Shown here: positions 11,113-16,614 of the stretch, in pieces
How the letters are laid out: each line of letters starts with the position of its first letter
Numbering within the stretch: the first letter of the stretch is position 1
From: Candidatus Omnitrophota bacterium
GTDB lineage: Bacteria > Omnitrophota > Gorgyraeia > Gygaellales > Profunditerraquicolaceae
Assembly: GCA_041651035.1 (NCBI GenBank)
Contig: JBAZKC010000002.1
Coordinates: 201,046-265,045, forward strand
Direction of reading: 5' to 3'
Length of the DNA stretch: 64,000 nt
Program-made: the position numbers and the translations under genes
The notes under the pieces: model-generated
The model's database searches: none
Told to the model about the DNA's origin: nothing
Seen by the model: only the letters and a program-made list of their open reading frames with translations

Positions 11113-14100
11113 ATGACCAACAAAAGAAAGGGGAATATAAAAATGGCGCGTAAGATCTTTTCTCTTTTGATCAGCTTTTCTTTAATCTTCCAGCAGATAG
11201 GTTTTGCCAGTATGACGGCAGAACTTAACATAGCGGGGCACTTAAGCAAAATGTCCGGTGGATTTGTCCAGGACAGATTCAGGCCCGCGCATATCAGGTT
11301 CTTCTCCTACGACGCCCGGAATGATAATATTAAGGTAATGTTAGATAGGGGCGATGTCAAGGGCCTTAAGGGAGATAAGCTCAACGCGTCCACCCAGGAA
11401 TTATTAAATTATTTTCTAGTAGGCATAAACCTCCCTAATGATAAGTTTTGGGTAAACCTGCGCCCGGATTCTGAAAATAACATTATAGATGACTACTTGG
11501 CCAGGACTGATGTAGGCAGGATCATGCTGGAAGCGGACCTGCAGCTAAAAAAAGATACCGCGCAATTTACTTCACCGGAAACCCTTGAAGGCAGGGAATA
11601 CTGGAACAAGCTTTATAAGAAAGCTGAAGAGCTCTACGGTTACCAGGAAGTAAATATTCCTACCTTGACCCGTCCCTGGATAGTCCCTAATGAGATCATT
11701 GTCCGCGAGGCTAATGATAGCGCTTATATTTATAAAGCAACATTAAAGGTAATGCTGGAGCAGGATTTTCTTAAGGATTCAGCTGCCTATAGCTTTAAAG
11801 ATGCCCGCGCCAAGGAACTTAACGAGTATTCTTCCCAGTTGATCCGCGAATTAATTATTCCTAAATTAACCAAAGAAGTAAATCTTTCCAAGCGTTACGC
11901 TGCTTTAAGGCAGGTGTATTATTCCATAATCCTTTCCCGCTGGTTTAAATCCCATTATGCCGGACAAACCGGACAATATGCCTCGCGTATTGATACCAGG
12001 GACCTTACCGGGCTTACTTCTGCTACTGTCTGGTCAAAAACTACTTATTTTGAGGCTTATAAAAAATCATTCGCGCAAGGTGAATATAATGTTAAAGAAA
12101 CCATGCGCACTCCGACAGGACAGGTGATCAGGACATATTTTAGCGGCGGCATGAACCTTGGGGATACTCTGACAATCAACGGGCCAAGAACTAGCAGCCC
12201 TATTGTGCCCATGGATACTTTTATGGATACTTTTAGAAAAGCCGGGCTAGTCGCGCCAGATGGTATGGCCATAACTGCATCTTCGCCAGTAACAATTAAT
12301 AAAAACTTTGAGTTACTAAGAAAAATTCCTGAGGCGACTAAGGCATTAGCAGATAGAGACCTAACCGGACAAAATGTTTTAATCAGGGTGAACATGAATG
12401 TTAAATCCAAAGACGGTGTAATTGATGATACTGCCAGGCTTGATGCGGTAGTTCGGATTGTAAGTTTTATTTTAAATAATGGCGGGACGCCGATACTTTA
12501 CGGGCACAACGGCCGCTTGGATAAAAAGAAGGGCAAAGATGAACGCCAATCTCTGGAAGATGCGGCAAATTATATTCAAAAGCTCTTTCCGGATATTAAG
12601 GTGGTATTTCATAAAAACAGTGTACCTAAAGATACTGGTGTGGGATTACAGATAAATAAATCCGATATTGTGCCGGGAGCAATTAATATCTTAGAAAACG
12701 TGCGTTTTGCCGACGATTATGAAATAGGCGCGAAGAGAATGATATTTGCTAAATCCTTAATAGCTCTTTCCGATGGGATTTTTATTTTTGATGCTTTTGG
12801 AGATATAGGCTCAAGCGGAGCATCAGTAGAAACCGTTCCTTTTCTGGCAAAAGAAGTCTATACAGGTCCGGCAATGGTAGAAGAGTTTAATATTCTGGAA
12901 AGTATGCTGGGTGGTTTTGATGCCTTAATTTTCGGTGGAGCTAAACTTGAAAAAGCAGATCTCTTGGATCGTCTGGTTGCTGCAATGAAGAAAGCTGGCT
13001 TTGCCTTAATCGGCAGTGGACCGTCTCCGATGCTTAATACGGAAAAGAAAGATTTTCTTGATAAACTACGCGCAGGCGATCCGGAAAGAGTAATTATAGC
13101 TCTGGATTATAAAGATCAAACTAAATTTGATATAGGCCCAGAGACAATTGCTAAGTTCCTTGCAAAATTAGATACTCTTAAAGCAGGCCAAACAGTGGTT
13201 TATAACGGAACTATGGGATTTATGGAACATGATAGCGGCCAATATCAGGAAGGGACTAAGGCAGTAATGGAAAAACTTATTGAGCTTGCCCGGCGAGGAG
13301 TGCGCATTATCGTTATCGGTGGCGATGCCGGCAGCACAGCCAAGAAATACGGGCTGGATAGAGAAAAGAATGTGGTTACTTTTACCGGAGGAGGAGTGCC
13401 TCTTAATATTCTTGCTAATGAACCTTTAGTGGGATTAAAGGCTTTGGACCGCAGACAGCAACAATTGGAGCTTAAGAAATCAACTCCTGCGGATACTGAA
13501 ATAAAATTTAATGTTGTAATAAACGGAGCTAGAGGGCGCATGGGGCTCTTATATCTTCATAGCCTGCTTTACGATGAAACATATTCCGATATGAGGATAG
13601 TCGCTCTAAACGGCGTTCCCTTGGAAGACCTGGATGATTTTATTAAAAAACTTTATTCTCCGGATAGCACATATGGTGTGTTATTTCCAGGCATAGATGT
13701 TAAAGTTATAGAAAAAAATACAGAAAAGAAATACGCGATTATTGAGATAAATAGCCAGAAAATCCTGGTATTAAACGACCGCAAAGATGCTATTCATTGG
13801 GATATGGTTGGTGAATTATTCGGAGAAAGTTATTTAACCCGCTTAGGAATAATTGAAACTTCCGGGCAGAACCTGGAATCCGAGAAATCCAGGAAAGTGC
13901 ACCTTGCTAATGCTGGTGATGCTATAGTTGAATTTGGCGCGCCGCCAAAAGATGAAGGAACTCCCATAGTAGTTTTGAGTGTAACCGAGGAAAGCCTTGA
14001 AGCAGATGCCCAGGTTTTCTCAAATGCCTCATGTACTACTAATAGTATTGCGCCAGTGGCCAATAAATTGCATAAAGCTTTTGGCGTAAAAAGGGGCGTT

Positions 14101-16614: not shown

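Follow-up and report, generated by a model that had tools for sequence, protein, structure and literature searches.

A signal-peptide-bearing protein with phosphoglycerate kinase and glyceraldehyde-3-phosphate dehydrogenase domains belongs to a large modular cassette family of Omnitrophota

In the window, i.e. the whole 64-kb stretch of Omnitrophota DNA analysed here, positions 11113-16614 of the forward strand form one open reading frame (ORF) without stops or frame changes. The gene starts at 11143, downstream of a AAAGGGGA ribosome-binding site, and its product of 1,823 residues is identical to P0001, an NCBI protein from an Omnitrophota MAG named 'phosphoglycerate kinase'. The single uninterrupted frame and the start proposed in a sequence-only reading of this DNA are thus borne out. 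The features of the locus are collected in Table 1.

Table 1. Features of the cassette gene and its flanks, with positions in the window.
Feature	Residues	Position	Strand	Basis
Promoter-like site (TTGACA-N16-TATATT, TG-extended -10)		10976..11003	+	11/12 matches
5' leader hairpin (15 bp) and U-run, terminator-like candidate attenuator		11070..11103	+	Scan; folding
Predicted Sec-type signal peptide (MARK / IFSLLISFSLIF / QQIGFA, cut before S)	1-22	11143..11208	+	Sequence features only
Conserved N-terminal module (head), alpha/beta, family-defining	23-340	11209..12162	+	Homology, AF2
Linker rich in Ser and Pro, junction motifs SSPI and SSPV, low confidence	341-394	12163..12324	+	Sequence, AF2
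Divergent phosphoglycerate kinase domain	~395-775	12325..13467	+	Pfam, NCBIfam, alignment
Type I GAPDH domain with catalytic Cys964 and catalytic His	~789-1142	13507..14568	+	Pfam, NCBIfam, alignment
Second, degenerate GAPDH-fold domain without catalytic Cys or His	~1199-1476	14737..15570	+	hhalign, model
Helical spacer, its last ~50 residues forming one helix	~1477-1699	15571..16239	+	Low pLDDT
Conserved C-terminal module (tail)	1700-1823	16240..16611	+	Homology, model
Intrinsic terminator: CCCCGAGG, loop, CCTCGGGG, T-run		16640..16673 (about)	+	Read by eye

The gene had been described as an independent transcription unit, a view upheld by the promoter-like site, the leader hairpin and the 3' terminator. 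The first of these lies past the groEL terminator, and its -10 element is extended by TG. The hairpin is the sole element kept in the centroid structure of the leader, at a position matching that of the conserved leader terminator of paralogues. The TTTCTAAAAG 'boxes' reported earlier in the leader correspond to arms or flanks of this one hairpin, not to demonstrated operator boxes. The 3' terminator was identified by eye and is absent from the list of the automated terminator scan.

A chimeric contig, or separate pgk and gap genes read through, could in principle mimic such a protein. This artefact was considered only because the fusion is unusual; nothing was found in its favour, and it appears extremely improbable. 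The N-terminal module, the phosphoglycerate kinase (PGK) domain, the GAPDH domain and the second GAPDH domain are found in the same colinear order in three independent assemblies (P0002, P0003 and P0004), and the identical type of head and tail recurs in thousands of proteins. GC content is flat across the uninterrupted ORF (0.40-0.43). P0002 and P0003 share 72% and 65% identity with the 1,823-residue protein, each in a single HSP over residues 1-~1475, and their loci are not syntenic with the window.

The PGK assignment is confirmed by Pfam (PF00162, 148 bits vs a cut-off of 27), with a match in two stretches covering both lobes. The domain is full length, with 26% identity to Escherichia coli Pgk over 412 columns. 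The bifunctional PGK/TIM profile NF010569 matches only at profile positions 4-221 of 645, within the PGK half (residues 400-626; 124 bits vs a cut-off of 883), and no TIM domain is present. The sequence-only reading had announced a complete PGK with all its hallmarks. Its full length and most catalytic and nucleotide-site residues (RxNxN, H62, R65, ENVRF, GGAK, GxxE and GGD) are indeed there, but the His and Arg of the 3-phosphoglycerate site are gone ('FGTAHR' replaced by 'FGDIGS'), and the hinge motif 'GGGIANTF' reads 'GSGPSPM', followed by a deletion of ~17 residues. Because these 3-phosphoglycerate-site residues and the hinge motif are missing, whether this domain is active is uncertain. 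Both changes are common to P0002, P0004 and P0005, and the PGK domain of P0002 is degraded further; the His and Arg are retained in the other PGK domains of the family.

The following domain matches the NCBIfam type I GAPDH profile (TIGR01534) over residues 791-1134, model positions 2-328 of 330. Since its score of 206 bits is under the equivalog cut-off of 367 despite this end-to-end coverage, its sequence marks it as a divergent homologue, not an equivalog. Of the two Pfam GAPDH profiles, the C-terminal one is above its cut-off (Gp_dh_C, PF02800, 89 bits vs 24.4), but the N-terminal one (Gp_dh_N, PF00044) is not reported. The catalytic set noted earlier is confirmed: Cys149, His176, Thr179, Arg231 and Asn313 are all present, here as well as in P0002-P0004 and in five other GAPDH domains of the family, and TGAAK is retained in the protein and its orthologues. 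The Gly-rich NAD loop, by contrast, is not canonical: it reads GARGRMG (GxxGxxG), one residue longer than GxGxxG. The NAD-specifying Asp32 is replaced by Gly, and cofactor binding or preference may therefore differ from those of canonical enzymes.

The ~680 residues after GAPDH, previously left without assignment, open with a second GAPDH-fold domain that is catalytically dead. It aligns colinearly with the GAPDH domain of the same protein (hhalign E-value 7e-4, probability 27%) and is modelled with a pLDDT of 60-86. The pairing of an active and a degenerate GAPDH is also found in other members of the family. The helical spacer that follows varies even between orthologues.

The two large flanking regions, which had seemed featureless, are in fact the defining parts of the protein: its N-terminal ~340 residues and its C-terminal ~125 residues are constant modules of a protein family. 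The head, 55-86% identical between paralogues, has a confidently predicted core in its AF2 model (residues 44-312, pLDDT 80-94). No match to it was found in Pfam (E <= 10), NCBIfam (E <= 0.01), PHROGs or PADLOC, PDB comparisons by sequence or by profile yielded no relative, and a Foldseek search against BFVD was negative. An adenovirus penton match to the head (E-value of 0.014 against PDB sequences) fell to an E-value of 0.21 by profile and was rejected as a chance match.

The tail, common to 158 of the 208 family proteins collected, consists of the motifs SSPI, GGIDFR, YEPMGNF and LP.L, in this order, followed by a helical bundle with Cys1775 and Cys1803/1804. The bundle is modelled with a pLDDT of 96-98 and the GGIDF stretch with 50-58. 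Two invariant stretches, 'GEYN..G..IR.YFSGG' of the head and 'GGIDFR..PMGNF..LP.LS' of the tail, have low model confidence. No Pfam or NCBIfam profile matched the tail even at E <= 10, and it matched neither dockerins, the T9SS CTD, autotransporter barrels, RTX/T1SS nor PEP-CTERM signals; its model is that of a soluble bundle of helices. A homology search with the tail only retrieved five short proteins, with no sign of free-standing tails: P0212, the only one whose context was checked, lies at the end of its contig, and the contigs of three others are ~1.5 kb long. Structure prediction gave a confident head core without a detectable fold relative and a tail bundle with generic matches only. 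Head and tail represent two abundant domains that neither Pfam nor NCBIfam covers and for which sequence comparison with PDB yields no counterpart.

The protein belongs to a very large and hitherto undescribed family of modular cassettes that is specific to Omnitrophota and whose frame comprises a signal peptide (Q-x-G-F-A), a head of ~320 residues and a C-terminal tail of ~125 residues, with interchangeable cargo between them. It has the N-terminal signal peptide and head, and a single C-terminal module with the GGIDF/PMGNF motifs and the bundle. Homology searches returned 756 matches, 55-78% identical in the head and differing in cargo. Among 1.84 billion representatives searched, the head was found in at least 7,675 representative clusters (50% identity), almost all from Omnitrophota and always at the N-terminus, within residues 1-~400. 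Among GTDB species representatives, we located 442 loci of the family, with few outside Omnitrophota, and MAGs harbour at least 4-5 paralogues each, some in tandem. Each protein has exactly one head and one tail, for lengths ranging from 609 residues, in a nearly cargo-less member, to 6,439. The divergences of head and tail are correlated (r = 0.69, Mantel p = 0.001), even though the cargo differs.

In the protein described here, the cargo comprises the divergent PGK, the type I GAPDH, the dead GAPDH-fold domain and the helical spacer. Paralogues carry other enzymes of sugar metabolism, namely enolase, phosphoglucomutase (PGM), cofactor-independent phosphoglycerate mutase (iPGM), triosephosphate isomerase (TIM), fructose-bisphosphate aldolase (FBA), glucose-6-phosphate isomerase (PGI), pyruvate phosphate dikinase (PPDK) and transaldolase, as well as nucleotide kinases and NUDIX domains. 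Enzymes of successive pathway steps are frequently joined in one chain; such fusions include TIM+GAPDH+PGK+iPGM, GAPDH+PGK+enolase, PGK+enolase, PGK+PPDK, FBA+TIM and PGM+PGI+transaldolase. As PGK is joined in various orders to enolase, PPDK, GAPDH, TIM or iPGM in these relatives, the inverted PGK-then-GAPDH order that had been emphasized earlier carries little meaning. Many members have HEAT or TPR repeats or no recognizable domain, and P0199 and P0207, of 4.3 kaa, have no Pfam domain.

Many genes of the family are preceded by a conserved riboswitch-like leader RNA, which is not clearly present before the PGK-GAPDH gene. It has the layout P1(GGAG loop)-UGCCAC-terminator, and no Rfam family matches these leaders. 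Since our model of this RNA (R1) matches 27 family loci but yields no match in the 64-kb window at E <= 1, the leader is frequent among family genes and not universal. It may represent a new class of cis-regulatory RNA.

The Sec signal peptide proposed at the 11143 start fits the expected pattern, with its n-region MARK, an uncharged h-region and a cleavage-type G-F-A followed by S, and is retained as a prediction. This region is the sole hydrophobic segment of the protein, which has only four Cys residues in total. Its features are shared across the family: the Q-x-G-F-A motif is present in 153 of 162 complete members, and among those 153 the n-region is net-positive in 150 and the h-region uncharged in 131, with a conserved small-x-small site.

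The closest known proteins are the giant 'Archaeovorins' of Omnitrophota. Long proteins of this phylum carry glycolytic-type domains predicted to be extracellular or periplasmic (10.1101/2023.11.21.568195; 10.64898/2026.06.07.730766). Like the cassette protein, they have an N-terminal signal peptide and glycolytic-type content, with TIM, PGI, FBPase, PGM, FBA, PPDK, NUDIX and HEAT repeats in one chain predicted to be extracytoplasmic, and they raise the same cofactor paradox. However, Archaeovorins exceed 30 kaa, have tens of TM helices and include glycosyltransferase (GT), methyltransferase, peptidase and NUDIX domains, whereas our protein is 1.8 kaa long, has just one hydrophobic segment and lacks all four of these domain types; the longest head-bearing protein that we found has 6,439 residues. 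The statement that such a protein has no described precedent was thus too strong with regard to glycolytic-type domains behind signal peptides, but neither the constant head/tail frame nor a PGK-GAPDH cargo is described in the Archaeovorin papers (West-Roberts 2023; 2026 preprint). A literature search with Omnitrophota terms found no PGK-GAPDH fusion in this phylum.

Other systems offer partial parallels. Cellulosomal enzymes are a functional analogy, in that diverse enzymes are brought into one extracytoplasmic assembly by what they have in common, a signal peptide and, at one terminus, a constant module. Nevertheless, the cassette protein has no similarity to dockerin or cohesin, its tail is helical whereas dockerin is an EF-hand pair, it has a large constant head in addition, no scaffold protein was found, and its cargo is glycolytic instead of consisting of glycoside hydrolases. 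Consecutive or neighbouring glycolytic steps are also joined in one polypeptide in the bifunctional PGK/TIM of Thermotoga type (NF010569) and in the TPI-GAPDH fusions of stramenopile mitochondria, but these housekeeping enzymes of the cytosol or of organelles are devoid of signal peptide, head and tail. In streptococci and other bacteria, the surface 'moonlighting' GAPDH is an ordinary housekeeping enzyme without a signal. It is found outside the cytoplasm, as predicted for the cassette GAPDH; the latter is a dedicated, signal-peptide-bearing paralogue embedded in a modular frame.

With a probability of roughly 0.55, we favour the view that the protein is a modular cassette for export and assembly, by which a nanobacterium, probably epibiotic or predatory, would place central-carbon enzymes in its envelope or on its surface; both localization and activity are deduced from sequence. 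The literature reports epibiotic predators in Omnitrophota. An exported substrate-level phosphorylation module, one of two options raised earlier, remains the leading, still predictive, reading. Guided by its signal peptide, the protein would cross the inner membrane. Head and tail, being constant, might act as shared handles by which the proteins are anchored or self-assemble in the envelope or a surface coat, a putative role suggested solely by this constancy, and would gather diverse central-carbon and nucleotide enzymes at one extracytoplasmic site. There, the GAPDH-PGK pair would interconvert glyceraldehyde-3-phosphate and 3-phosphoglycerate with NAD(H) and ADP/ATP, using phosphorylated metabolites that a host or prey cell releases. 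A partner subunit of the normal GAPDH oligomer is probably replaced by the dead GAPDH-fold domain. Several points count against this reading: one does not expect NAD+, ADP/ATP and triose phosphates beyond the cytoplasm, the PGK domain has its lesions and the GAPDH domain a non-canonical NAD loop and specificity residue, head and tail have no detectable relative whose function is known, and there is no conserved partner gene beside family genes. In the neighbourhoods of 80 family loci, we found no conserved secretion system, scaffold or sortase; family genes lie in lineage-specific housekeeping contexts, with occasional tandem members.

These housekeeping surroundings, the cytoplasmic nature of the cofactors that the cargo enzymes need and the fusion of consecutive pathway steps would also suit a cytoplasmic metabolon, in which the N-terminal helix is an uncleaved anchor or part of the head, and head and tail tether enzymes to the inner membrane face or to each other for channelling in a very small cell. 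The 2026 preprint (10.64898/2026.06.07.730766) considers 46% of long Omnitrophota proteins to be membrane-anchored with their bulk in the cytoplasm, and West-Roberts et al. 2023 (bioRxiv 10.1101/2023.11.21.568195) doubted the extracellular call, suspecting mis-predicted topology for such domains. We consider this possible but on the unlikely side. By the positive-inside rule, MARK before the helix and net-negative residues after it place the bulk of the protein outside, and 153 of the 162 members have a small-x-small cleavage motif after the h-region. Moreover, an ordinary standalone PPDK (40406-43150) and a pyruvate kinase (60128-61150) are encoded in the same window. No standalone gap or pgk gene was found within the 64 kb; GAPDH, PGK and enolase were matched in 176 of 176 complete Omnitrophota genomes at strict KO thresholds. 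PPDK is also carried as cargo by paralogues elsewhere, in addition to the standalone PPDK of this window. The cassette cargo thus probably represents extra enzyme copies, and the cell appears to keep its normal cytoplasmic set.

It is also conceivable that the glycolytic folds are repurposed within a surface-coat protein, where they would bind ligands or surfaces in the manner of adhesins or 'moonlighting' enzymes, with no pathway catalysis. The PGK domain, deprived of its 3-phosphoglycerate-site His and Arg and of its hinge motif, and even more degenerate in P0002, would fit such a role, and for this domain the earlier option of repurposed folds retains some probability. The dead GAPDH-fold domain, scores far under equivalog cut-offs and the many members with HEAT or TPR repeats or no recognizable domain point in the same direction. 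Yet no family GAPDH examined has lost its catalytic Cys, His, Thr, Arg or Asn, most PGK catalytic residues are retained, and cargo combinations match pathway order, not chance, so that we hold mere display to be rather improbable. With consecutive steps fused together and GAPDH catalytic residues kept, the cargo looks like a working pathway, as judged from its sequence.

Taken further, the cassette family may be a dedicated export-and-assembly system with which epibiotic or predatory Omnitrophota bring near-complete glycolysis, along with nucleotide kinases, NUDIX and HD enzymes, to an envelope coat or prey interface, harvesting energy and carbon from leaked phosphorylated prey metabolites and cofactors, with many of its genes co-regulated by the undescribed riboswitch-like leader RNA. 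We regard this wider scenario as speculative and fairly unlikely.

For annotation, our analyses indicate that thousands of database entries with names such as 'phosphoglycerate kinase' or 'enolase' are actually cassette proteins, which metabolic reconstructions of Omnitrophota may miscount as housekeeping enzymes. With 1-3 kaa, a clear frame and swappable cargo, the family is a tractable model for the unworkable giant proteins of this phylum. It suggests that in Omnitrophota, whose cells are tiny, enzymes of sugar breakdown are located beyond the cytoplasm. Should the signal peptide be functional, a widespread phylum of nanobacteria would run glycolytic chemistry outside the cytoplasm, against the textbook assumption, and the family would provide a concrete mechanism by which epibionts could act as energy parasites.

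The ORF at positions 11113-16614 of the forward strand, which the sequence-only reading had taken for a signal-peptide protein with phosphoglycerate kinase (PGK) and GAPDH domains between two unknown regions, is indeed single and unbroken; this observation was confirmed, and the interpretation drawn from it was supported in part. The probable start codon is ATG 11143, with AAAGGGGA just upstream, and the resulting product of 1,823 residues is 100% identical to P0001, a protein from an NCBI Candidatus Omnitrophota MAG (385-kb contig) annotated as 'phosphoglycerate kinase' in the database. 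Its gene has housekeeping neighbours (GroEL upstream; IMPDH, GuaA and DnaE downstream). The GC content is flat along the whole ORF, and the same colinear architecture was found in three independent assemblies, in the proteins P0002 (72% identity), P0003 (65%) and P0004. This recurrence all but rules out a chimeric assembly as the origin of the ORF.

A homology search with this protein matched 756 proteins, nearly all of which have only residues 1-~340 (55-78% identity) and ~1700-1823 (35-75%) in common with it and differ from it in between. Hereafter, we call the conserved N-terminal module (residues 23-340) the head, the conserved C-terminal module (residues 1700-1823) the tail, and what lies between them the cargo. 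Among 1.84 billion representatives of clusters at 50% identity, a head profile matched 7,675 clusters (6,377 with E <= 1e-30), and the match was without exception located within residues 1-~400. GTDB species representatives harbour 442 family loci, almost all in Omnitrophota MAGs, and among the best 80 loci several genomes have at least 4-5 paralogues, some in tandem. Tandem paralogues with different cargo are found at L009/L051 (contig JBDRKE010000010.1) and L026/L039 (contig SCRK01000074.1). Head and tail each occur exactly once per protein, and the length of complete members lies between 609 and 6,439 residues, with a median of 1,534. In 'empty' cassettes, P0179 (609 residues) and P0166 (724 residues), a linker of ~140-260 residues without enzyme domain joins head and tail; the frame is viable without cargo, since P0179 has essentially none. 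Distances between proteins computed from heads and from tails are correlated (r = 0.69, Mantel p = 0.001), indicating that the two ends are co-inherited or coevolve as the middle is swapped. Head and tail are constant across the family and the cargo is exchangeable.

Pfam annotation of the first 120 matches identified as cargo PGK (20 members), phosphoglucomutase (PGM; 12), enolase (8), GAPDH (8), cupin-type glucose-6-phosphate isomerase (PGI; 7), guanylate kinase (6), cofactor-independent phosphoglycerate mutase (iPGM; 5), pyruvate phosphate dikinase (PPDK)/PEP synthase (5), triosephosphate isomerase (TIM; 3), class II fructose-bisphosphate aldolase (FBA; 3), NUDIX (3) and transaldolase (2), with FBPase, adenylate kinase, HD, HEAT/TPR and others in a few members each; about 45 lack a Pfam domain. 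Members with several cargo domains show a striking tendency to join consecutive steps: iPGM+GAPDH+TIM+PGK (P0024), enolase+GAPDH+PGK (P0008 and P0010), PGK+PPDK (P0005), PGM+FBA+TIM (P0026), PGK+enolase, FBA+TIM and PGM+PGI+transaldolase. This tendency speaks for selection acting on pathway function and against random capture of domains.

In the 1,823-residue protein, the Pfam scores are 148 bits for PGK and 89 bits for Gp_dh_C. The PGK-like domain (residues ~395-775; 26% identity to E. coli Pgk) had been described as complete with all hallmarks. Most of them stand, namely RxNxN, His62, Arg65, ENVRF, GGAK, the catalytic Glu and GGD, but 'FGTAHR' is replaced by 'FGDIGS' and the hinge 'GGGIANTF' by 'GSGPSPM', followed by a deletion of ~17 residues. 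These three features are common to the orthologue group P0001, P0002, P0004 and P0005; the His-Arg pair is retained in other PGK domains of the family. The GAPDH domain (residues ~789-1142) matches the NCBIfam type I model end to end (residues 791-1134), at 206 bits versus an equivalog cut-off of 367. The catalytic Cys (C964) and His, already noted in the sequence-only reading, are present, and so are Thr179, Arg231, TGAAK and WYDNE; the same holds for the orthologues and for five further GAPDH domains of the family. The active site is intact. The dinucleotide loop is GARGRMG (GxxGxxG), with Gly in place of the NAD-specifying Asp.

The ~680 C-terminal residues, initially considered unknown, were resolved into three parts. 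Residues ~1199-1476 form a second GAPDH-fold domain, colinear with the protein's own GAPDH domain by hhalign (E 7e-4, probability 27%); in this low-probability alignment, Cys and His are both replaced by non-catalytic residues. Pairs of active and degenerate GAPDH domains are also found in P0008, P0010 and P0122. Residues ~1477-1699 constitute a poorly modelled helical spacer ending with a helix of ~50 residues, which varies even between orthologues. The first part of the tail, SSPI..GGIDFR..M.I.YEPMGNF..LN..LP.L, is nearly invariant yet modelled at pLDDT 50-58, and the second is a helical bundle (pLDDT 96-98) holding three of the four cysteines in the protein. A homology search with a 555-residue segment (14563-16227) returned no match, not even the identical P0001, which looks like a word-index limitation, not biology.

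At the other end, the predicted signal peptide was borne out by sequence features: residues 1-22 (MARK / IFSLLISFSLIF / QQIGFA|S) follow a textbook Sec pattern and contain the only hydrophobic segment of the protein. A signal-peptide-like N-terminus is conserved throughout the family: among the 153 members with a Q-x-[GSA]-[FLM]-[ATVG] motif, the n-region is net-positive in 150 and the h-region is uncharged in 131, in most cases with Gln next to it. An AlphaFold2 model based on a 23-sequence alignment gives the head an alpha/beta fold, with two long beta-hairpins against six long helices (residues 44-312, pLDDT 80-94). No family of Pfam, NCBIfam, PHROG or PADLOC matches the head, which has no PDB relative at the sequence level either. 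The linker that follows (residues 341-394) is disordered, Ser/Pro-rich and contains 'SSPI' and 'SSPV'. The motif [SA]SP[VILM] recurs at module junctions of the family, behind the head and right before the GGIDF of the tail, and may mark linkers or serve for processing.

Many family genes have a conserved leader 40-170 nt upstream of the start codon, itself preceded by a TTGACA promoter box in both loci read (L082 and L083). It comprises a short 'AUCCGG', a P1 hairpin (8-13 bp) with GGAG in its apical loop and a stem whose sequence differs wholly between loci, a conserved 'CUGCCAC(G/A)', and an intrinsic terminator 'AUCCGGAUUGAC...GGGUC(A/G)GUCCGGAU' with a U-run. This order (AUCCGG, P1 with covarying stem, CUGCCACG, terminator) is riboswitch-like or attenuator-like. 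A covariance model seeded with 17 leaders yielded 27 matches (E < 2e-5) in 604 kb, 10 of them outside the seed, all on the coding strand directly upstream of a family ORF; they include L001-L005, L017, L028, L031 and L051, in addition to the two in the table. Compensatory double changes are seen at six of the 12 pairs of the terminator, and P1 carries GGAG in its loop in 24 of 26 folds (mean z -3.4). The terminator has a palindromic 5' arm with which the 5' 'AUCCGG' is able to pair, and this provides a classical antiterminator alternative. No Rfam 15 family matches these leaders. A second variant, with UGCCACG..GGGUCGGC within the terminator loop, occurs at L011, L021, L023, L045, L060 and L071. 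The full motif is present at the orthologues P0002 and P0003; the gene in the window has no covariance-model match, and the equivalent place (11010-11110) holds only a hairpin and a U-run.

Features of the window and of two leader loci
Feature	Position	Strand	Remark
Strong promoter-like site	10976-11003	+	
5' leader hairpin	11070-11103	+	15 bp, with U-run
Clean intrinsic terminator	~16640-16673	+	by eye; absent from the automated scan's list
Standalone PPDK	40406-43150	+	914 aa; no family head or tail
'Alginate export' (AlgE-like) outer-membrane beta-barrel family protein	45956-47356	+	
Glycogen-related cluster (by appearance)	47446-50771 and 61178-62872		
ParA/MinD-type ATPase fused to glycogen-binding CBM48/AMPK module	49689-50771		
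Standalone pyruvate kinase	60128-61150	-	340-aa ORF; only the Pfam PK barrel matched; no family head or tail
Leader RNA, L082	3844-3943		
Leader RNA, L083	3853-3950		

Two observations favour the view that the cassette enzymes are accessory, non-housekeeping copies. The standalone PPDK and pyruvate kinase genes indicate that conventional copies are kept of at least some enzymes carried as paralogue cargo. In addition, with strict KO thresholds, GAPDH, PGK and enolase are all matched in each of the 176 complete Omnitrophota genomes; the divergent domains of the protein in the window, far below NCBIfam cut-offs, would be unlikely to reach such thresholds. Elsewhere in the window, the apparently glycogen-related cluster encodes a GH57 enzyme, a 186-residue protein without Pfam match and the ParA-CBM48 fusion, in that order, with a glycogen-phosphorylase-like gene nearby; the domain content of the fusion suggests active positioning of glycogen granules. 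The AlgE-like barrel gene is consistent with a diderm envelope.

We propose that the cassette proteins are exported by Sec and that head and tail would serve as shared anchoring or assembly handles, gathering many enzymes in one extracytoplasmic structure. In the AlphaFold models, the stretches 'GEYN..G..IR.YFSGG' of the head and 'GGIDFR..PMGNF..LP.LS' of the tail are invariant yet of low confidence, as expected if they need a partner in order to fold; contacts of the head-to-tail or head-tail-scaffold kind are therefore a specific, testable idea. The dead GAPDH-fold domain may replace the partner subunit of a normal GAPDH oligomer beside the live one. GAPDH and PGK would together interconvert glyceraldehyde-3-P and 3-PG, using NAD(H) and ADP/ATP, and a leaking host or prey cell would be the obvious source of substrates and cofactors. 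Omnitrophota include the epibiotic predator Ca. Velamenicoccus archaeovorus, and several of their classes carry ATP/ADP translocases. The main objection is that such cofactors are not expected outside the cytoplasm, an argument for the main rival to export, a cytoplasm-facing metabolon. The authors who reported such domains in giant Omnitrophota proteins raised the same objection (10.1101/2023.11.21.568195). We therefore give an extracytoplasmic localization roughly even odds.

Of what has been described, the giant 'Archaeovorin' and further long proteins of Omnitrophota come nearest; in these, TIM, PGI, FBPase, PGM, FBA, PPDK, NUDIX and HEAT domains follow a signal peptide and are predicted to be extracellular or periplasmic (10.1101/2023.11.21.568195; 10.64898/2026.06.07.730766). 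The protein of the window lacks the size, the many TM helices and the GT/peptidase/methyltransferase content that define Archaeovorin; conversely, the head/tail frame, PGK or GAPDH cargo and thousands of members of 1-3 kaa are absent from those papers. Cellulosomal enzymes, in which a signal peptide and a constant docking module accompany a variable catalytic module, offer the closest functional analogy, but the cassette family shows no homology to dockerin or cohesin. The known fusions of glycolytic enzymes (PGK/TIM, TPI-GAPDH) reside in the cytosol or in organelles and have no part of the cassette frame. The literature searched by full text for Omnitrophota/Omnitrophica together with PGK, paralogues, signal peptides or fusions of glycolytic enzymes contained no description of the family. 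We would best place the protein in a head/tail cassette family that is itself undescribed and is akin in kind to the long surface proteins with multiple enzymes known from Omnitrophota. The interest of this family lies in its size, its pathway-ordered cargo behind a signal peptide, its two uncharted domains and its leader RNA, the latter two opening direct experiments on the long-standing puzzle of nanobacterial activity at the surface of other cells.
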